A stretch of DNA of 64,000 bases, taken from positions 96,001 through 160,000 of the forward strand of contig PRDH01000044.1 of the NCBI GenBank assembly GCA_003345545.1. Direction: 5' to 3'. This DNA comes from Candidatus Thorarchaeota archaeon (GTDB lineage: Archaea; Asgardarchaeota; Thorarchaeia; Thorarchaeales; Thorarchaeaceae). Positions 19,516-44,803 of this stretch are shown one piece after another. Under the pieces are notes generated by a model. The model was not told the origin of the DNA. It saw only the letters and a list, made by a program, of their open reading frames with translations, and ran no database searches. Position 1 is the first letter of the stretch. Each line of letters opens with the position of its first letter. A program made the translations under genes and the position numbers.

Positions 19516-20352
19516 TCAGAACAGATAGCGAACAACGTCATCAAGGATGGCATAGGTTTCCAGTCTTTGAATGTCCCCCTTGACATATGGCATGACATCA
19601 TCAAAGATCATGTTTCGATACTCCTTAGGTGCGACAGTCTCCTGTGTCACTTTCCCTAGCAATCGCAGCAGTTCTTCCAAGGCGTCCCTCAAATGCTGAT
19701 AGGACACATCATAGACATCAATCTGAAGGACTTCAATACCCGCAGTATCAATAGGCACAGAGCTGAGGAAAGGATATTGACTGAGAAGGTGTTCAACGTG
19801 TTCGGTCATTTTGGCAACAATCTGACTCTTCTTGGCTTTGGTCGCCTTCACCTGCATGACGCCTCTGAAGAGATGACTATAGACCTCAAGGCAGTCCATT
19901 GATTTACCAGCGACCAAGCTCTCATCTGTTTCTTCATACTGTGTAACAAGCACATCCACCCAGTCACCGAAGCCCTTGAAAGTATTGCGAGTTCCAGGCC
20001 AATTCTTCAATAGTGTAGCGACATCACTACCAGGAGGCACAACATTTGTCATGAATTCCTTCAGAGCATACTCCAGCATGAAGCGCATGTGTCCAAGCCG
20101 GGCGGCCTTGCTCACGACCATAACGAACAGAAGATAGTCGTTCGCCTCCCAGACATACCGGTTGGTTTCCGTGTCGATTGTCTTGAGGGTCTCGTTAGAT
20201 GCCTTATCGATGAAGGTGTGGGTTGCAGAGAGAAAGGGGGCTATCAGATCCATATCTAGTTTCACAGCATCAGAATAGGCCTTGGCAACAATATTCCTGC
20301 CACTACCTCGCTCGATCACCCAGACTCCTAGAATGGACTTCTTGCTGGACAT
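19516..20352 (-). CDS. Longin-like domain protein with helical C-terminal domain
   Basis: ILGVWVIERGSGRNIV..Y...DLIAPFLSA..TF...LKTID...YLLFVMVV matches the Asgard longin-like pattern. Confidence 0.65.
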   Translation of the reverse strand: MSSKKSILGVWVIERGSGRNIVAKAYSDAVKLDMDLIAPFLSATHTFIDKASNETLKTIDTETNRYVWEANDYLLFVMVVSKAARLGHMRFMLEYALKEFMTNVVPPGSDVATLLKNWPGTRNTFKGFGDWVDVLVTQYEETDESLVAGKSMDCLEVYSHLFRGVMQVKATKAKKSQIVAKMTEHVEHLLSQYPFLSSVPIDTAGIEVLQIDVYDVSYQHLRDALEELLRLLGKVTQETVAPKEYRNMIFDDVMPYVKGDIQRLETYAILDDVVRYLF

Positions 20353-20470
20353 AGCATCATCTCTTGGGAGTATTGTTGAAATGAAGTATGATAAGCCTAT
20401 ATGTGACAGGAGGCATACACGAGAAGACGTACCTAGAAGAGAAGGCAAGACTTGCGTCCTGCCCCTTCAT

Positions 20471-26597: not shown

Positions 26598-28208
26598 ATG
26601 CCTCTTCTAGATGTGACCACCGGAGGTACTCAGTTGACAGAAGAGGCAACATCTGAACTGTGTCGATCCTGCCAGAAGAACAGAGCAACCCACATGTGTG
26701 AAGACTGCGGAGCAGCACTTTGCTTAGAATGTCTAGATAGCAGAACCACTGAGTATAGTGTATGTGGAGACTGTCACCACTCTCTCGGAGAAGCCATACC
26801 TGGGGAGAAATTCGAGAGCTGTCCTGAGTGCAAATCTGAGAACCTCACCAAGGGAAAACGTACTATTGATATTTGCGCTAGGTGTCACTCGGTTCGGGTC
26901 GTTGTCCTTGAGGATAAGAGAAGGACACTAGCCCTTGAAATGCGCCATGCCGTCATGACAATTCAGTATGGACATACCAAGCTTCGCGAATTCAACAGCA
27001 AACTCAGTGTCACTAAGCGTCTATTGGTGTCGCTCAGGATGGCGAATTTTCTCCATTACAAGTGGCTCGAAGAAAAGATAGAGGCAATCCAAGAGGAACT
27101 GCCAGCAATCAAGAACCGAATCGGAAGTCAGGCAGAGATAGTAGCCAGAAGGATGTCTGCTGAAACCAAGAACTTCATAGACTATGCTCTTTGGAGCCCA
27201 TCCCAATTTCCATTCATTGAGGGAATAACCAACAGAATCACAGAGCTCGGAATCTACTACAAACAAAACGTTGACGAGGCAATCGAGTCCCTCAGAACCA
27301 CACTGAAGGATGTCAAGAGGCAATTGGATGGTCTCGATTACTATAGGAATCACTTCACAAACTTCTACGAACATAGCCAGCTCTCTGTCGGAGAGCTCCC
27401 AGTGTGCGCTCTACCAGACGTGAAAGTAGCAGGAAGTGATTTCCTCAAGAACGACAAGGCCCTAGGAACACTGTACCTGACAAATAAGAGGCTCTTATTC
27501 TTGGCTGAGACTGGAAGAGTCCGCAGAAAGATGGAAACAATCTTCGATTTTCCGCTTCTTTATCTGAAGTCGATAGAGGAGGACGGGCGGTTTCGAAAGA
27601 GGCTAGTCCTGAAGCTCAAGCAGGGCGATGTGAGAATATCTTGTTCGGACCAGACAAAGAAGGTCTTACCAGACTATGTGGAGATCGCTCGCAAGTTCGA
27701 TAGGTATGTCCAGACGGACATGCAGAGAGTGCGCAAAATCGAGCAAGAAGAAGTCAGTATCAGCGATGTGAGGCTAAAGATCGAAGGGATGGTCTATTCA
27801 CTACTATCACCGAACAAGAAACAAGACGATGCCACAGCAATCGGGTCAGACCTTCGGTACCGAACCCAACCTTGGTCCACGTCCCAAGTTCAACCAAGGG
27901 AGATTCCTTATGGCACAGGCTACACGTCCCCGGAATTCTTCAGAAGGGATTTGGAGAGAACAATTGGCCGGAGCAGCCAGCCGCAAAATGGTGACATGCA
28001 ATACCGACCAAGCGAATCTATTGATACCCTTCAAAGAAACTCGGAGTCCATCTATGGAGCCATACGAGAAACTGTACACTTGTTGAGAGATGGTCGCTTA
28101 GTGACAGAAGACTTCATTCGAAGGTACAAAGATCTCATGAGAGATTCCTATCTCAACAGAAGAGAGATTCAGCGCCTCTCAAGAGAGTCCAGAGATCAAT
28201 TCTGGTAG
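26598..28208 (+). CDS. ESCRT-associated multidomain protein: B-box/FYVE-like Zn fingers, coiled coil, GLUE/GRAM-like PH domain, steadiness box
   Basis: Six CxxC pairs in aa ~22-96; long heptad region; GTLYLTNKRLLF...PLLYLKSIEE PH/GLUE motif; C-terminal AIRETVHLLRDGRLVTEDFIRRYKDLMRDSY resembles the Vps23/TSG101 steadiness box. Confidence 0.7.
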   Translation: MPLLDVTTGGTQLTEEATSELCRSCQKNRATHMCEDCGAALCLECLDSRTTEYSVCGDCHHSLGEAIPGEKFESCPECKSENLTKGKRTIDICARCHSVRVVVLEDKRRTLALEMRHAVMTIQYGHTKLREFNSKLSVTKRLLVSLRMANFLHYKWLEEKIEAIQEELPAIKNRIGSQAEIVARRMSAETKNFIDYALWSPSQFPFIEGITNRITELGIYYKQNVDEAIESLRTTLKDVKRQLDGLDYYRNHFTNFYEHSQLSVGELPVCALPDVKVAGSDFLKNDKALGTLYLTNKRLLFLAETGRVRRKMETIFDFPLLYLKSIEEDGRFRKRLVLKLKQGDVRISCSDQTKKVLPDYVEIARKFDRYVQTDMQRVRKIEQEEVSISDVRLKIEGMVYSLLSPNKKQDDATAIGSDLRYRTQPWSTSQVQPREIPYGTGYTSPEFFRRDLERTIGRSSQPQNGDMQYRPSESIDTLQRNSESIYGAIRETVHLLRDGRLVTEDFIRRYKDLMRDSYLNRREIQRLSRESRDQFW

Positions 28209-28212
28209 TACT

Positions 28213-28830
28213 CTACATCCCCAACTCACGTTCTAAGGATTTGATGTCATCCTCTAGAGACTCAATCTCGCCAAGGGGTTTCTTTACTGCAGCAGCGTCT
28301 GTAAGACCTGCTTCTATGTCAATCTCCTGCATTGCAGACGTGAGATCTTCAGACGAGATCTCCATAGTCGAGTCAAGAGCCTCATCGGATATGTCCGTTT
28401 CAATCTCGAATTCTTCAAGGCGTCGAGCAATCTCGTCAACGTTCGCGACGACCTTTGTCGAGTCAGTAGATTCGCCCAGCATGCCAAGAATCTTCGCCAC
28501 TTCCTGAAGAGCTAGAGAGGTCTTTGCCGACGTCTGAGCACGATTCAGGTGTGCAAGGATTTTTAGAATCTGAAGTCGTGACTTGTCGACGGAGAGCGCG
28601 TAGCGTCTGAAGCGGATCATCTCGGTAGCATAGGTTCGATATGCGTCAACCTGCCCGCCCTTCCGCGCACGTACAGCCCTGGCGCGTGTATCCTGTTCCT
28701 CTTTCTCGAGTTTGTTTCTCTGTCGAGCAAGCTGTTTGCTCAGGATTCTTAGACGACTGGAAATCTCACCAACATCTGGTTTCTTCTTACCCCAGGCAAA
28801 TGCCTTTCTTATTGAAGCCAAAGAATTCAC
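28213..28830 (-). CDS. ESCRT-III (Snf7 family, Vps2/24/46-like)
   Basis: Basic N-terminal helical hairpin, acidic C-terminal half, terminal amphipathic MIM1-like helix (LEDDIKSLEREL); adjacent to Vps4. Confidence 0.85.
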   Translation of the reverse strand: MNSLASIRKAFAWGKKKPDVGEISSRLRILSKQLARQRNKLEKEEQDTRARAVRARKGGQVDAYRTYATEMIRFRRYALSVDKSRLQILKILAHLNRAQTSAKTSLALQEVAKILGMLGESTDSTKVVANVDEIARRLEEFEIETDISDEALDSTMEISSEDLTSAMQEIDIEAGLTDAAAVKKPLGEIESLEDDIKSLERELGM

Positions 28831-28983: not shown

Positions 28984-30213
28984 ATGGCCGGATCGGATAG
29001 TGATAGATTGGACCTGGGGCTCAAGACTCTGCTCGACAGAGCCATAGAACTCGATCAGAGAGGAATGAAGAACGAGGCGTGCCAATTATACCTCAAGGCA
29101 AGTAAGATATTGATCAAGCTTTCAAACTCAGCCGCTCTTCCAACCATAAGAAAACACTACTTCAATCGCGCCCAAGAGTGCGTTGATAGGGTTAGATTCC
29201 TCTCAGGCATTAAGAAGAAATCGGCAGGACCTGTTGATGGTCTTGCTGAACCGCCAAAGGCAGACTTTGGTCCTGCCAAGCCTACGCGAATCAAGCAAGC
29301 ATCCAAGGTTGAGCAGGAGATTGACGAGGATGCGAAACGACTGCGAGAGATGATCTCGGACACAATCATCTCTGAGCGGCCCAAGATCAAACTGTCTGAA
29401 GTTGCTGGACTCGAAGACGCAAAACAGGCGATTAATGATGCAATAGTCACACCAATGAAACATCCGGAGCTATTCAAGGGCAAGGCAAGACAGCCATGGA
29501 GAGGAATCCTATTCTTTGGACCAGCAGGCTGTGGAAAGACACTCATTGCAAAAGCAGTGGCATCAGAGGTGAACGCGACATTCTTCAATGTCTCTGCCGC
29601 GAACATCGTCAGCAAGTGGTTGGGAGAGTCCGAACGCTTGGTCATGAGCCTCTTTGAACTGGCCAGAAAGAATCAGCCTGCAATCATTTTTGTTGATGAG
29701 CTCGACTCTATCGGTGTGTCGCGCTCTGGAGATGATGTTGGGGGAGAACGACGACTTAAGACCCAACTGCTTACAGAGCTTCAGGGTCTTGGAAGCAATC
29801 CAGAAGACAGAATCACTCTGATTGGAGCCACGAACCTACCGTGGGAGCTGGACTTTGCACTTCGGTCGAGATTTGAGAAGAAAATACATGTTCCACTTCC
29901 TGGACGAGAGGCAAGAACAGCAATCTTTGAAACCCATATGGAAGACATCGAGGTTTCTCCGACCATTGACTACGAAGAGATGGCAGATCTGACCGAAGGG
30001 TACAGTGGTCGAGACATAAGCATCGTCTGCCGAGAGGCAGCAATGGAACCAATCCGAGACCTTCAGCGCACTGGAAGAATGGACGATGAGAGAGAAATCT
30101 TGGACATCCGGCCCGTTTCAAGGGAAGACTTCTTGAGCGCCATCGAGAACATCAGACCTGCAACTCCCCCAGAGGATGTCAGGAAATACATTGACTGGGC
30201 GGAGGGTTCTTAG
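28984..30213 (+). CDS. vps4: Vps4 AAA+ ATPase with N-terminal MIT domain
   Basis: MIT (RAIELDQ...EACQLY...AQECVDRV), VAGLEDAK, PWRGILFFGPAGCGKT, SKWLGESE, FVDELD, ATNLPWELD, TEGYSGRDI. Confidence 0.93.
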   Translation: MAGSDSDRLDLGLKTLLDRAIELDQRGMKNEACQLYLKASKILIKLSNSAALPTIRKHYFNRAQECVDRVRFLSGIKKKSAGPVDGLAEPPKADFGPAKPTRIKQASKVEQEIDEDAKRLREMISDTIISERPKIKLSEVAGLEDAKQAINDAIVTPMKHPELFKGKARQPWRGILFFGPAGCGKTLIAKAVASEVNATFFNVSAANIVSKWLGESERLVMSLFELARKNQPAIIFVDELDSIGVSRSGDDVGGERRLKTQLLTELQGLGSNPEDRITLIGATNLPWELDFALRSRFEKKIHVPLPGREARTAIFETHMEDIEVSPTIDYEEMADLTEGYSGRDISIVCREAAMEPIRDLQRTGRMDDEREILDIRPVSREDFLSAIENIRPATPPEDVRKYIDWAEGS

Positions 30214-30216
30214 AGG

Positions 30217-30954
30217 TTGGGCATGAGAGAGAAGCGGAAAGAGAAACGAAGAGAAGAGGCCCAGGAAGAACCAGAAGATACTGAGGTGGTCAGGACAGTT
30301 CAGGAGGCAGAGACCTCCCCAGTAATAGAGGAAGACATTCACACACCCGAGGTCATCATTGGGAAGCCCGATGCGACTGAAGTAGTCTCTGAGAATGAAG
30401 CTGTCACAGACGAAACCGAAGCAGAGAAACTTCAGAGCGTACCAGTCGTTTCGATGCCCCCTTGGGGTAGCCCCGAGGAGAGCGAATGGATGTACGGTGT
30501 TCCTCCAAGAGAAGAGGATAGAATCTTGTGGGCAGAGGAGTGGTCAGATTATCTGCTTCAATGGGCAGAACTCAAACAGATCCATGTACTATCCCTTGCT
30601 GTGTTCATTAGTGAACCTCCTTTCAATGATTTGAGAAACAAGGTCGACTCCTTCAAGATGATTTCCGAGGTCCTCATCGATAAGGAGGTGGCGGAATGGA
30701 GTGATAGGCGAAGACGCCAACTCAGAATCTTTTGGAAACCACTTGAGGACTGGGCGGACCTGATATATGAGTGGTCCCTGAGAACAGGAAAGCTAAGACT
30801 AGATGTGAAGTCCATAGTGATACAGGAGTCAAAGGAGAGCTTTGCAAAGCTTCCTGAAAGAGACCTCCATGTTGTTATGGGGTTGATGGTAGAGAAAGGA
30901 TTTGCTGAGTGGATTGATAAGAAGAAGGGCGCAGTCCTGGTATCGACTCAGTAG
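30217..30954 (+). CDS. Vps25-like ESCRT-II subunit with acidic disordered N-terminus
   Basis: PP motifs (MPPW, VPPRE), WSDYLLQW, IFWKPLEDWADLIYEW, LMVEKGFAEW match tandem Vps25 winged helices. Confidence 0.8.
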   Translation: MGMREKRKEKRREEAQEEPEDTEVVRTVQEAETSPVIEEDIHTPEVIIGKPDATEVVSENEAVTDETEAEKLQSVPVVSMPPWGSPEESEWMYGVPPREEDRILWAEEWSDYLLQWAELKQIHVLSLAVFISEPPFNDLRNKVDSFKMISEVLIDKEVAEWSDRRRRQLRIFWKPLEDWADLIYEWSLRTGKLRLDVKSIVIQESKESFAKLPERDLHVVMGLMVEKGFAEWIDKKKGAVLVSTQ

Positions 30955-31772
30955 GCTCCTTGGTTTGAGGTTTCAGGTTTATCTCGTGCTCTGAGACCCG
31001 GAAAATAATACCTCCCGCCTGTTGAGAAACGGATATCTGCAACTGCCATTCCGGTTTCTACGAGGCTCGTGAGCACTTGACGTGCATGATCTTCGGACCA
31101 TTTGAGCTGCATCATCACGTCTTCTACTGAAACATGACCTTTCGATGCTGCCAGGTTGACCACATCAGCTTGATCACGGCGGAGTTCGAGCGGCCTTAGC
31201 TCTACGACCTTCACTCCTCCACGAAGAGTCCGAATGCCAGGCAACAGACCGTTCTCTGACACCCGATTGACTGCCTCGATTACATCATTGTATGTAACGG
31301 ATTTCATCTCAGGAAGACGGCGTACGACCTCGACAATGAGCTCCGCAAGCCCCATTAGTCCCTTCGAAGCGTGCTCAGTCGCAACATCAAGTATTGCTAA
31401 GCCAATATAATCATAGTACTGGTCAGCATTCATTCCCTGATAGGACGTTGCGGAAGCACTCTCGCGGAGCCTGAGAAGGTCAGCAGCATCTGGAAAGACC
31501 TCTGTTATCCGTTCGCCTGCAAAGAAGCCCCCGACATCCAGTCCGCTTCGCTTCAGATTATCAATATGGCTCCGCACCTCCTGAAGGAGTGCTTGTGATT
31601 CTCTCTGGAATGATCCAATATCAACAGCACCCAGGTCATACAGCTTCTTCAGCTGGTCAAGCGTGGCAATGGAGGCATAGAGTTCTGTTTCGAATCGCTC
31701 CTGCATCGGTGATAGTTCCTTCTCTATTCTGAAAGTCCGCACAATGCTGACAAGACTCATTAAATTGCTCAT
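30948..31772 (-). CDS. Vps28 N-terminal domain fused to Vps22/Vps36 (EAP30) winged helices
   Basis: ELYASIATLDQLKKLYDLGAV...F...QALL resembles Vps28-NTD. YYDYIGLAIL...GLMGLAEL...VTYNDVIEAV...PLEL..DQ..V...KWSEDHARQVL..LV..G.A..D....YYFPGL matches EAP30. Confidence 0.8.
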   Translation of the reverse strand: MSNLMSLVSIVRTFRIEKELSPMQERFETELYASIATLDQLKKLYDLGAVDIGSFQRESQALLQEVRSHIDNLKRSGLDVGGFFAGERITEVFPDAADLLRLRESASATSYQGMNADQYYDYIGLAILDVATEHASKGLMGLAELIVEVVRRLPEMKSVTYNDVIEAVNRVSENGLLPGIRTLRGGVKVVELRPLELRRDQADVVNLAASKGHVSVEDVMMQLKWSEDHARQVLTSLVETGMAVADIRFSTGGRYYFPGLRARDKPETSNQGAY

Positions 31773-37537: not shown

Positions 37538-37692
37538 GATTATGATACCTCCATGGAACCTATTGATCCCATTGTCTGTGAATCTAGAACTCATTGAGAT
37601 ATTAAAGTGTCCCCTATTCATACGACCTCAGGTAATACATACCATTGTATTGTTCAGAGAGAATGCTCGTATGACAGCAAAATGGTCATCTA

Positions 37693-38550
37693 GTGGTGGT
37701 CATGACAACGTATCCTACTTACGATGGAAACAAGGTCACTGAGAGACCAGTGAGACTTGACAAGACTGAGGGGAATGTAATCATTGAAGGAAGGACATAT
37801 CCAGCAAGAGAACTCATTGAGGCACTTGCTCAGAGCGGCTATGCTGAACTGAGAACTGTTGGTGACTCCATTGTGCTGGGCAACAAGAGAATCACGCCCA
37901 TTTTCAAGTCTCGCCAGGAACGTGCCATGGCGGCTCTGTGTCACAGCAGCCTGGCCTATTGCTGCCCGCTCTCAAAGAGATGCGCTGAGCGAGATAGAGC
38001 CCTCGAGATAATGGGTCTGACACCCAATGAGTACGAAGACCTGAAGAAGAATGAGCATTTCAAATATGTTGAAACAGCAAAAGGAATCGGAGCCGAAGAC
38101 CCCCAATGGACAAATCAGGCGCCTAGAGACCGAATTGCCAATCGACCTGCCGTTGATCCCGGATATGGCTCGGAAGACTACAGACGTGATTTCGAAACTC
38201 TAGAGAAAACAATGGTACCGGAAGAAAACCGCTTCGATGGAAGAGACACGACATGGCGAGATTCTCGAGATGATAGAAACACACAGCAATACCGGGAGAG
38301 AGAGAGCAGGGACATCTATTCAGATCTACAGGGAGCAGTCCCCACAGAAGACGAACGCAGTCGCAGTGTCTGTAGCATAAAGCGAGACGAGTCTGTCGAC
38401 GGGATTGGCGCGCTCTTCACTCAGGGCGAACTCAGTCCGTTCCTTGACGACGCTCGAAAGGAGAACCAAGAACAGAAGTTTTGCTTCTCCTGTGGAAGGA
38501 ATATCAGAGCTGGTAGCAGAGTGTGCCCATACTGCGGCTCACGTCTATGA
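37693..38550 (+). CDS. Hypothetical protein with a methanogenesis-marker-9-like Cys cluster and C-terminal zinc ribbon
   Basis: LCHSSLAYCCPLSKRCAERDRALEIMGLTPNEYEDLK; low-complexity middle; CFSC...CPYC end. Confidence 0.7.
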   Translation: MVVMTTYPTYDGNKVTERPVRLDKTEGNVIIEGRTYPARELIEALAQSGYAELRTVGDSIVLGNKRITPIFKSRQERAMAALCHSSLAYCCPLSKRCAERDRALEIMGLTPNEYEDLKKNEHFKYVETAKGIGAEDPQWTNQAPRDRIANRPAVDPGYGSEDYRRDFETLEKTMVPEENRFDGRDTTWRDSRDDRNTQQYRERESRDIYSDLQGAVPTEDERSRSVCSIKRDESVDGIGALFTQGELSPFLDDARKENQEQKFCFSCGRNIRAGSRVCPYCGSRL

Positions 38551-43068: not shown

Positions 43069-43493
43069 AATGACTTTCTGATTCGTTTTGACATCCGATC
43101 CAACTCGTCTCGCGGAGCCATTGAGTCGTGATACCCTGGTGGAAACTTGAAACCAAATGGGTCGGCATTGTTTCTGGGAATCACGTGAAAATGCAGGTGT
43201 GGCACGTCTTGCCCAGCACCCTCACCATTTGCTATGACATTGATTACACCGTCTGCTCCCGTCGCTTTCGATACTGCCTTTGTCAGCTCTGACAGTTTCA
43301 CAGACATATGAGAAAGAACATCATGGTCAACATCCATCATGTTGACAAAGTGCCTTTTCGGTATGAGTAGACAGTGTCCGGTTGTTATTGGAAAGACATC
43401 CATGAAGGCCATACAGATGTCATCCTGATATATCACGGAGGATGGCACATCACCTTGAACAATCTTGCAGAAGATACAATCCTTTGAACTCAT
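43065..43493 (-). CDS. HIT-family nucleotide hydrolase
   Basis: CIFCKIV, GHCLLIPKRH, AGQDVPHLHFHVIPR. Confidence 0.95.
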   Translation of the reverse strand: MSSKDCIFCKIVQGDVPSSVIYQDDICMAFMDVFPITTGHCLLIPKRHFVNMMDVDHDVLSHMSVKLSELTKAVSKATGADGVINVIANGEGAGQDVPHLHFHVIPRNNADPFGFKFPPGYHDSMAPRDELDRMSKRIRKSF

Positions 43494-43612
43494 GTCTCGG
43501 TACTTTGAATAAGTGCGAAATAAAGAATTCGAAGTGCTTGAGTGACGTGCGCACAAGTCTAATTAGCGTGATTGACCCGAATGAGAATAACAGGTTACTT
43601 GGGTGCATCCTC

Positions 43613-44803
43613 TTGAGCGGAAGAAGGCCAAAGGTTTACTTCGACCAGACACAAAATGAGCGCGGAAAGCTGGACAGTACATACTCTGAACTGGGTCAAA
43701 TCCTGAGGGATAACGACTTTGACGTAGAACCCTATACAGAATTCATGCTTCTTGCCAAGAATCTGAGAGAAGCGGATGTCCTGGTATTCGGATGTCCTAA
43801 TAGCTCCAAAGTACGACCTCCTGAGATAGATGTTTTGCAGAAGTACGTCAAGAATGGGGGCGGTCTGATGTTACTATCGCTCTCAGGTGGCGATAGAGGC
43901 CTCATGAATAATATGTCACAGATATCACAGGAGTTTGGAATCTCTTTCGACAATACAGCAGTCAAGGATGACAGGAACAACGCGGGGATTCCCACCATGC
44001 CAGTCATCAGCGACATTGTCGCTCATCCGACGACCGAGAACGTGGGAGAACTTCTCATCCCTTCTGCCTGCAGCCTTCATGTCAGTGGCAAGGCAGTCGC
44101 TCTGGCCCGGACATCACAGGTGGCAGAACCAAGTAGGGCGCCCATTGTTGCAGCCGCAGAGGTTGGAAAAGGCCGTATAATGTGCATTGGGAGCTATGAG
44201 ATCTTCAGAAAGGGCGGGGGTCTGAAGCACGAAGGGAATACGACATTTGCAATTAATGCATTCAAGTGGTTGAGTAGAGAACTGCAGGCAACAAAGCCCA
44301 GCACTGCTGCCACGGAGCAAACAAAGACAGAGAGTGCCAAGGCAAGAGGGGAGCTAAGAGAGGCTGATACTGTGCCTACAGCGGAGATCGAAAAGACACT
44401 TAGAAGGCTGGTCAATGCTGTGGTTGACCTTCAGAAAGACATCTCCAAGATGAATGAACAGGTCGGGAATGTTGAATCCCATATTGAGCTTCTTAGAAGT
44501 CAGTTCCAAGAGTTTGCAGAGAAGACACAACAACAACTGGGTGTCATGATGCCAGCAAAGCAGTTCAAGACTCCCGAGGAGAATAGGGCTGCAGATATTG
44601 AGGCAGACATCAGATCCCTACTAAAAGAGACAGAATCAATTCAGCAGCTCTGCGAACATATCGAACAGAGGTATGCATCTGGAGCCATGGCAAAAGAAAC
44701 CTATACCGAACAGATGGAGAGTCTAAACGCCAGAATCGTTAGTATAGGGAAGAAGATTGAGAAGAAAGAGAAGGAGCTTGAACAATTCAAGACGGAGGGC
44801 TAA
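43613..44803 (+). CDS. IFT52/GldG (GIFT)-like domain plus coiled coil
   Basis: VYFDQTQNE, EIDVLQKYVKNGGGLMLL...GG....NNMSQI..EFGI.FDN.AV resembles the IFT52 N-domain; long C-terminal heptads. TTG start assumed. Confidence 0.7.
   Translation: MSGRRPKVYFDQTQNERGKLDSTYSELGQILRDNDFDVEPYTEFMLLAKNLREADVLVFGCPNSSKVRPPEIDVLQKYVKNGGGLMLLSLSGGDRGLMNNMSQISQEFGISFDNTAVKDDRNNAGIPTMPVISDIVAHPTTENVGELLIPSACSLHVSGKAVALARTSQVAEPSRAPIVAAAEVGKGRIMCIGSYEIFRKGGGLKHEGNTTFAINAFKWLSRELQATKPSTAATEQTKTESAKARGELREADTVPTAEIEKTLRRLVNAVVDLQKDISKMNEQVGNVESHIELLRSQFQEFAEKTQQQLGVMMPAKQFKTPEENRAADIEADIRSLLKETESIQQLCEHIEQRYASGAMAKETYTEQMESLNARIVSIGKKIEKKEKELEQFKTEG

Follow-up and report, generated by a model that had tools for sequence, protein, structure and literature searches.

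We analysed a window of 64,000 nucleotides of DNA from a Candidatus Thorarchaeota archaeon (contig PRDH01000044.1, positions 96,001 to 160,000), and we report here on a gene at positions 26598-28208 (+ strand) of this window, the product of which we call the adaptor. Our analysis confirmed that the adaptor consists of four modules in one chain, that is, zinc (Zn) fingers, a helical bundle, a PH domain and a Vps23-type steadiness box. The adaptor is very likely the Thorarchaeial orthologue of the Asgard family Znr_CC_PH_SB (cog.011556), to which it was matched by the published description and not by the accession of a member.

We consider the following explanation of this orthologue quite probable as a whole. 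The Zn fingers at the N-terminus, together with the basic PH domain, would recognise a membrane surface, a cargo or a partner protein, and the helical bundle would act as a spacer or as an oligomerisation stalk. [quoted passage not shown] Through this docking, the sensor would be connected directly to Vps22/Vps25, and then to ESCRT-III (Snf7) and Vps4. Without relying on ubiquitin, the adaptor may stand in for Vps23 at the front end of this pathway. The analysis itself demonstrates the architecture and the homologies, whereas we infer each binding step in this explanation.

Among prokaryotic proteins, the ESCRT proteins of Asgard archaea are those most closely related to the machinery that remodels membranes in eukaryotes, and the point at issue is how the end of this machinery that senses cargo and membrane worked before the recognition by ubiquitin and UEV. 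Because one chain unites modules that are distributed among ESCRT-0, -I and -II in eukaryotes, the adaptor offers a good entry point for experiments.

Domain architecture of the adaptor

The gene is an intact open reading frame (ORF), which encodes 536 amino acids (aa) when it is read from the ATG at 26598 and 524 aa when it is read from the TTG at 26634. A GGAGGT stands 6 nt ahead of this TTG (spanning 7-12 nt before it; window 26622-26636), and most of the homologues are 524 aa long with an N-terminus of the form MTED... or MTE.... Judging from these features of the sequence, TTG at 26634 is likely the true start of the gene, and the choice between the two codons alters no domain of the adaptor. 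The identity of the adaptor across Thorarchaeia was 51-95%, and a search of 1.8 billion proteins with the adaptor profile gave 116 clusters at 50% identity. Thus, the pattern of the adaptor does not arise by chance. A Pfam scan of the whole protein gave 0 matches above the cut-off; it was the scans of the domain pieces and the family-wide Pfam scans, and not the scan of the whole protein, that were informative.

The structure of the whole adaptor was modelled with AlphaFold2 from an alignment of 24 sequences, and the mean predicted local distance difference test (pLDDT) value was 77.7. The Zn module covers residues 19-103 (26652-26906, + strand, as are all of the following parts), and its 12 invariant Cys, which would serve three Zn sites, are divided between an eight-Cys finger (C22-C59) and a Zn ribbon (C75-C96) after it; in the model the fingers appear as small beta-hairpins at residues 20-103. 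The helical bundle or coiled coil covers residues 104-259 (26907-27374) and is composed of three helices of 36-52 residues each, which AlphaFold2 placed at 104-148, 155-190 and 201-259. The PH domain, which is GRAM/GLUE/bPH_3-like, follows at residues 262-372 (27381-27713), and it was modelled as a seven-strand beta sandwich capped by a C-terminal helix (268-371). C-terminal to this domain, the structure models contain two conserved helices in residues 373-405 (27714-27812), which reach residue 403. The steadiness-box helical hairpin is located at residues 473-536 (28014-28205), as indicated by both the model and the family profile, and its two helices (473-497 and 503-535) were modelled with a pLDDT of about 95.

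Between the PH region and the hairpin lies a linker rich in Pro, Gln and Tyr (residues 406-472; 27813-28013), in which the stretch 408-470 was of low confidence, that is, disordered. The linker contains one short helix at 445-457 (window 27930-27968) with the consensus F-R-x-x-L-E-R-T-x-x-R, which is conserved in Thorarchaeia within the otherwise variable linker. This helix does not appear to fit the MIM1 pattern.

Domain-specific hidden Markov models built from the Thorarchaeial alignment recovered the Zn module in 83, the helical region in 51, the PH domain in 92 and the hairpin in 33 of 119 representative relatives, and the order of the modules was kept. The original prediction, which was made from the DNA sequence alone, had proposed Zn fingers, a coiled coil, a PH domain and a steadiness box in a single chain, with a Pro/Gln-rich linker ahead of the C-terminus. 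Every one of these modules was recovered by the model, the Pfam scans and the profiles, and the linker was found where it had been proposed.

The Cys residues of the Zn module are arranged in the pattern CxxC-x8-CxxC-x4-CxxC-x10-CxxC-x15-CxxC-x14-CxxC, and all 12 of them (C22, 25, 34, 37, 42, 45, 56, 59, 75, 78, 93 and 96) were invariant among 40 diverse members of the family, so they are enough for three Zn sites. Pfam scans of this region matched zf-B_box in 39 of the 40 members (best E 1.1e-6), a double Zn ribbon in 33, ANCHR-like_BBOX in 29 and, weakly, FYVE in 14. For the adaptor itself, the B-box score (PF00643) was 18.7 bits, below the cut-off of 24.1, and the E-value of FYVE was 1.2. 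When the profile of the Zn region was compared with the PDB, the top matches were the RING finger of RNF4 (1.9e-6), RING2 and the B-box of TRIM2, and the best match of the Thorarchaeial profile was the finger of ZFYVE19 (1wfk, E 0.01). The spacing CxxC-x8-CxxC-x4-CxxC is presumably that of B-box1. The FYVE/B-box-like Cys spacing pointed out in the original prediction is supported by these Pfam and PDB matches and by the invariant Cys. It had also been stated that the basic RRHHCR motif is missing, and indeed none of the FYVE lipid motifs WxxD, (R/K)(R/K)HHCR and RVC was found in the adaptor sequence or in the family consensus. Membership in the FYVE family (PF01363) was rejected because these lipid-binding motifs are missing. 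In our reading, the module begins with a putative B-box/RING/FYVE-like finger of eight Cys and continues with a Zn ribbon; its Zn topology is predicted from the sequence only, and the fingers appear to be B-box-like rather than FYVE.

For the PH domain we made a separate model of residues 262-405 from 42 sequences, with a pLDDT of 85.6. The first match of this model in Foldseek was the PH-GRAM domain of MTMR2 (E 8e-5), with a root-mean-square deviation (rmsd) of 3.3 Å over 106 columns; next came the GLUE domain of human EAP45 (2hth_B, E 1.1e-4, TM 0.53/0.58), the GLUE domain of yeast Vps36 (2cay, E 1.5e-4) and a mouse GLUE domain (2dx5, E 2.7e-4). In the comparison with representative structures, the Z value was 12.4 for MTMR2, 10.7 for the GLUE domain 2dx5 and 10-11.7 for many PH/PTB folds. 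The PH-GRAM domains of MTMR2 and Lam6 were aligned with Z 12.1-12.8 and an rmsd of 2.6-3.1 Å over about 105 residues at 12-20% identity. The PH superfold is thus certain, whereas its subclass is inseparable by Z. Three motifs, GTLYLTNKRLLF, PLLYLKSIEE and KRLVLKL, had been quoted in the original prediction as parts of a PH fold, and all of them turned out to be strands of the modelled domain.

The profile of the PH family had the GLUE domain of yeast Vps36 as its top PDB match, at an E-value of only 0.038. Pfam scans of the 42 members matched bPH_3 in 24 (best 1.3e-8), GRAM in 12 and Vps36_ESCRT-II in 10 (E <= 0.1; best 0.0023), and on the adaptor Vps36_ESCRT-II (PF11605) scored 13.1 bits, under the cut-off of 24.1. 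Since bPH_3 is at least as close by sequence as GRAM or GLUE, the term GLUE-like is valid at the level of the fold only. We describe the PH domain as GRAM/bPH-like and not as a GLUE domain in the specific sense. The proposal of a Vps36 GLUE/GRAM fold therefore stood as far as the structural matches to MTMR2 PH-GRAM and Vps36 GLUE are concerned, but not by sequence, which favours bPH_3. Closeness to generic bacterial PH domains, which had been named in advance as a result that would speak against the proposal, was found in part, namely by sequence (bPH_3, 24 of 42).

As to the ligand of this domain, it is also conceivable, though in our opinion unlikely, that the PH domain binds a protein or a peptide, in the manner of PTB and Ran-binding domains or of the ubiquitin face of GLUE, and serves for a cargo or an ESCRT-III tail and not as a lipid sensor. 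The PTB, Exo84 Ral-binding and RanBD folds reached Z values of 10-11.7, level with those of lipid-binding PH domains, and bPH_3, the closest Pfam family, is without a shown lipid function. However, conserved Lys/Arg residues stand at 309-311, 331 and 334-335, in or beside the inter-strand loops, and the net charge of the domain is +7. These basic loops and this charge fit an acidic membrane surface, although they do not prove it. Moreover, its best individual matches, the GRAM domain of MTMR2 and the GLUE domain of Vps36, both bind phosphoinositides, and no ubiquitin was found in the source genome (completeness 92.9%).

The hairpin at the C-terminus was compared with the PDB by means of a profile of 28 sequences, and the best matches were to the yeast Vps23 ESCRT-I core (2p22_A, E 4e-7; 2f66_A, 1.6e-6; 2caz_A, 7e-6). 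The same profile matched TSG101 at E 0.011 and VPS37B at E 0.017. Pfam Vps23_core (PF09454) was found in 21 of the 28 family members (best E 2.9e-7), and it exceeded the curated cut-off within ORFs found by the family profile (about 390-620 aa) in four distant Asgard genomes (G022, G118, G240 and G033). These comparisons support the reading of the C-terminus as a Vps23-type steadiness box that is homologous to the core of Vps23. The resemblance to the steadiness box of TSG101 noted in the original prediction agrees with this result; the fold that was to be looked for, the hairpin, was clearly present in the model (473-535).

Relation to the Znr_CC_PH_SB family and to eukaryotic proteins

Makarova et al. 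(2024, mBio, PMC10936438) described the Asgard family Znr_CC_PH_SB, also written Znr_PH_CC_SB (cog.011556), which has Zn modules, a coiled coil, a PH domain and a steadiness box. According to them, the family is absent in eukaryotes, was probably ancestral in Asgard archaea and is likely a component of ESCRT-I, and its PH domain is expected to associate with the membrane. The adaptor resembles this family in its three Zn-binding modules, its coiled coil, its PH domain and C-terminal steadiness box, its restriction to Asgard archaea and its nearness to ESCRT-III. Because the architecture matches that of Znr_CC_PH_SB, the family is already known. The original prediction had implied that a protein combining features of ESCRT-0, -I and -II was new; this does not hold, as the same architecture and role were published in 2024.

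The part of the table in PMC10936438 that concerns Lokiarchaeum GC14_75 gives a member of 650 aa and the gene order L35Ae, Znr_CC_PH_SB, MetE, Vps20. With the adaptor profile we found a Lokiarchaeial relative of 646 aa (E 5.6e-33), which was collinear with the adaptor in BLASTP (E 4e-25). L35Ae is located four genes upstream of the gene of this relative and Snf7 two genes downstream, a setting that resembles the order in that part of the table (L35Ae ... Snf7/Vps20).

The differences from the published family are not substantive. The Thorarchaeial proteins are about 524 aa long compared with about 650 aa in Lokiarchaeia, because their linker is shorter. Furthermore, the first two Zn sites are read here as a B-box/RING-like finger, while PMC10936438 describes three Zn ribbons. 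What the present analysis adds to the published family is modest, namely the prediction of Vps22 as a partner and the reading of the adaptor as the sole Vps23-type subunit. Its value lies in the confirmation of the Thorarchaeial member, in the near-universal position of this member in the ESCRT cluster, and in the proposal of a specific partner that can be tested, namely Vps22 through its Vps28-type head.

Among eukaryotic proteins, Vps23/TSG101 shares with the adaptor the C-terminal steadiness-box hairpin (homology at the profile level), which follows helical and linker regions, and for the hairpin of the adaptor, pairing with a hairpin of the Vps28 type is likewise predicted. In contrast to Vps23/TSG101, the adaptor has neither a UEV domain nor a PTAP motif and carries Zn fingers and a PH domain at the front, and the hairpin predicted as its partner forms a fusion with Vps22, not with the C-terminal domain of Vps28. 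The GLUE domain of Vps36/EAP45, which stands ahead of EAP30 winged helices and binds ubiquitin and PI3P, shares a PH fold of GRAM-like type with the PH domain of the adaptor (E 1.1e-4 to 2.7e-4 in Foldseek, TM about 0.5, Z 10.7-11.4), but the PH domain of the adaptor is accompanied by no winged-helix domains in the chain and has no NZF insert, Pfam Vps36_ESCRT-II remains below the cut-off on the adaptor, and bPH_3 is closer by sequence. The PH-GRAM domains of MTMR2 and Lam6 are the best structural matches at the level of the fold only, and the adaptor differs from these proteins in having no phosphatase or StART domain. Vps27/Hrs (ESCRT-0) and ANCHR/ZFYVE19 are similar to the adaptor in that they are associated with ESCRT and combine a Cys-rich FYVE/B-box-type finger with a coiled coil, whereas the FYVE lipid motifs and VHS, UIM and MIM were not found in the adaptor. 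We regard the likeness to Vps27/Hrs and ANCHR/ZFYVE19 as an analogy and not as orthology.

Predicted Vps22 partner and possible ubiquitin-independent front end

The Vps22-like EAP30 protein is encoded at 30948-31772 (- strand), with a likely start at Met23 (31706), and the 90 residues from this Met on (31437-31706) are highly conserved. The top PDB profile matches of this N-terminus were to the N-terminal hairpin of yeast Vps28, at E-values of 0.076-0.15. It has been published that Asgard Vps22 (cog.002769) carries a fused steadiness box, which agrees with a Vps28-type head. When the complex of the adaptor steadiness box with the N-terminal region of the Vps22-like protein was predicted, the score was 0.82, and the best score of 3 controls was 0.01. 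Of 80 solved complexes, 58 attained the mark applied to this score, as did 2 of 110 mismatched pairs; these figures are approximate, as our own alignments were used. The prediction runs shared 100% of the contacts, and the pLDDT of the partners was at least 82. The predicted interface comprises about residues 493-522 of the adaptor and about residues 6-22 of the Vps22-like protein. These values, which come from modelling, support the prediction that the steadiness box and the Vps28-type hairpin of the Vps22-like protein form a pair.

The steadiness box might instead join other hairpin proteins, or further copies of itself, in a three-hairpin headpiece like that of ESCRT-I, so that Vps22 would not be the partner, or not the sole one; we hold this to be rather improbable. 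The eukaryotic headpiece is built from three hairpins (PMC10936438), and the yeast two-hybrid results of Hatano et al. (PMC9192718) give hints that a free-standing steadiness-box protein binds Vps28 or Vps22. In addition, the hairpin profile matched two proteins of the genome, one with a GIFT domain, a coiled coil and a steadiness box (E 7.3e-5) and one of 215 aa on contig 19 (E 1.2e-5). On the other hand, the pairing with Vps22 stood far above its controls (0.82 vs 0.01) and the Vps22-like gene is in the adaptor's own cluster. A three-hairpin headpiece is, moreover, compatible with the pairing of the adaptor and Vps22 rather than exclusive of it.

With regard to the front end of the pathway, Hatano et al. 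(2022, PMC9192718) reported that Thorarchaeota are without ubiquitin, and according to bioRxiv 10.1101/2023.07.25.550441 Loki- and Thorarchaeia are without UEV-Vps23. In the present genome, at its completeness of 92.9%, we found no match for ubiquitin, UEV or a separate Vps23_core, the UEV search having been made without a positive control, and Pfam VPS28 and Vps23_core gave only sub-threshold noise or weak matches across the genome. Neither the present scan nor the literature gave a UEV-Vps23 in Thorarchaeia or Lokiarchaeia, nor ubiquitin in Thorarchaeia, and the adaptor would then replace Vps23 without ubiquitin. We tentatively propose, as a possibility that we rate below an even chance, that the adaptor is the sole Vps23-type subunit in Thorarchaeia, and perhaps in Lokiarchaeia, and that the steadiness box and the Vps22 head form a two-protein bridge joining ESCRT-I to ESCRT-II, which would be ubiquitin-independent and triggered by lipid or cargo through the B-box and the PH domain. 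Compared with the eukaryotic ubiquitin-ESCRT system, such a pathway could be ancestral or could have been streamlined.

Several points weigh against our explanation of the adaptor. The adaptor was set against cog.011556 by description and by a Lokiarchaeial relative, and not by a named accession. Its own hairpin alone gave no Pfam match and Vps23 was reached through the family profile only; thus, the assignment of the steadiness box rests on the family. The E-values for the Vps28-type assignment of the Vps22 N-terminus are marginal. The predicted complex is similar to the Vps23-Vps28 headpiece of known structure (2f66, 2caz and 2p22), so that the high score may reflect likeness to this headpiece rather than binding of these particular copies. 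The two further proteins with a steadiness-box-like hairpin in the genome may be the real or additional partners, and the ligand of the PH domain is putative, as PTB and Ran-binding PH folds score level with lipid-binding ones. The 12-kb syntenic block that contains the adaptor includes the housekeeping genes of TFB, ArgRS, TldD/PmbA and AspRS, and adjacency in Thorarchaeia alone is therefore a weak argument. With housekeeping genes inside it, the block speaks more for stable inheritance than for selected linkage. The better contextual argument is the independent nearness to Snf7 in Lokiarchaeia. Finally, the whole explanation is computational, and binding and function are predicted.

That the adaptor lies outside ESCRT function and owes its position to inherited synteny, being either a B-box/coiled-coil scaffold similar to TRIM proteins or an exchange factor similar to DH-PH proteins, we consider very improbable: the entire block including the housekeeping genes is conserved in Thorarchaeia, the whole model matched DH-PH RhoGEFs in Foldseek (up to E 2e-5) and a B-box with a coiled coil recalls TRIM proteins, but the distant Lokiarchaeial orthologue is still two genes from Snf7 among other flanking genes, and the C-terminus is homologous to the core of Vps23. 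A DH-PH RhoGEF was rejected, because the Z values of DH-PH chains in VIA-align (10-11) were no higher than that of the PH domain alone and the rmsd over the helices was 7-18 Å. A TRIM-like E3 ligase was also rejected as unlikely, as neither a RING finger in the protein nor ubiquitin in the genome was found.

Gene neighbourhood, distribution and other hairpin proteins

The adaptor gene is followed by four ESCRT genes. An ESCRT-III gene of the Snf7 family (28213-28830, - strand) is convergent with it and lies 4 nt from its stop codon. Then come Vps4 (28984-30213, + strand), with MIT, AAA and Vps4_C domains, a Vps25-like ESCRT-II subunit (30217-30954, + strand) with a charged N-terminal extension, and the Vps22-like gene described above. 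The Vps25-like gene has a TTG start 4 nt past the Vps4 stop, and it overlaps the Vps22-like gene by 7 nt, tail to tail. Its extension of about 100 residues is rich in Lys and Glu and stands ahead of the ESCRT-II domain; it is variable in sequence and was present in all Thorarchaeial loci.

In the loci of 69 Thorarchaeial species, the gene order was TFB, ArgRS, TldD, PmbA, adaptor, Snf7, Vps4, Vps25, Vps22 and AspRS, and this order was kept wherever the contig extends. A search for related loci gave Thorarchaeial loci only, since the patterns that it used were specific to this class. Of 251 Asgard genomes sampled, 163 contained a match to the family profile, including 57 of the 59 genomes of the family to which the window belongs (f1) and 50 of the 54 of another family (f9). 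In several other Asgard families it was not found, for example in 0 of 26, 0 of 16 and 0 of 10 genomes. Among the sampled families, only the Thorarchaeia (f1) and f9 were without a separate Vps23_core protein. Mutual exclusion of the adaptor family and canonical Vps23 across Asgard families was rejected, as three families (f12, f19 and f27) carry both.

A protein of 453 aa at 43442-44803 (+ strand) of the window has an IFT52 GIFT domain (E 2.1e-15 in Pfam), and its chain also contains a coiled coil and, at the C-terminus, a hairpin. This hairpin (window 44600-44785) is the one that the steadiness-box profile matched at E 7.3e-5, and its match to the Vps28 N-terminus was weak (E 0.1). The layout of this protein is ESCRT-I-like with another front end. 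The Pfam VPS28 match in the genome was examined as a candidate Vps28 and rejected, since it is the steadiness-box-like tail of this GIFT protein.

The 215-aa protein on contig 19 is a coiled-coil ORF at about 37662-38309 (locus L076, 1111-1758, - strand), matched by the steadiness-box profile at E 1.2e-5, and it contains two hairpin-turn motifs of the form G-[RK]-[IV]-[ST]-E-x-E-[HY]. A second Snf7 gene is located on the same contig at 22804-23289, about 15 kb from this ORF. Lastly, a protein of 310 aa at 19516-20448 (- strand) of the window, which adjoins TFB and lies 6 kb from the ESCRT cluster, gave a weak longin match (Fuz_longin_1, E 0.005).

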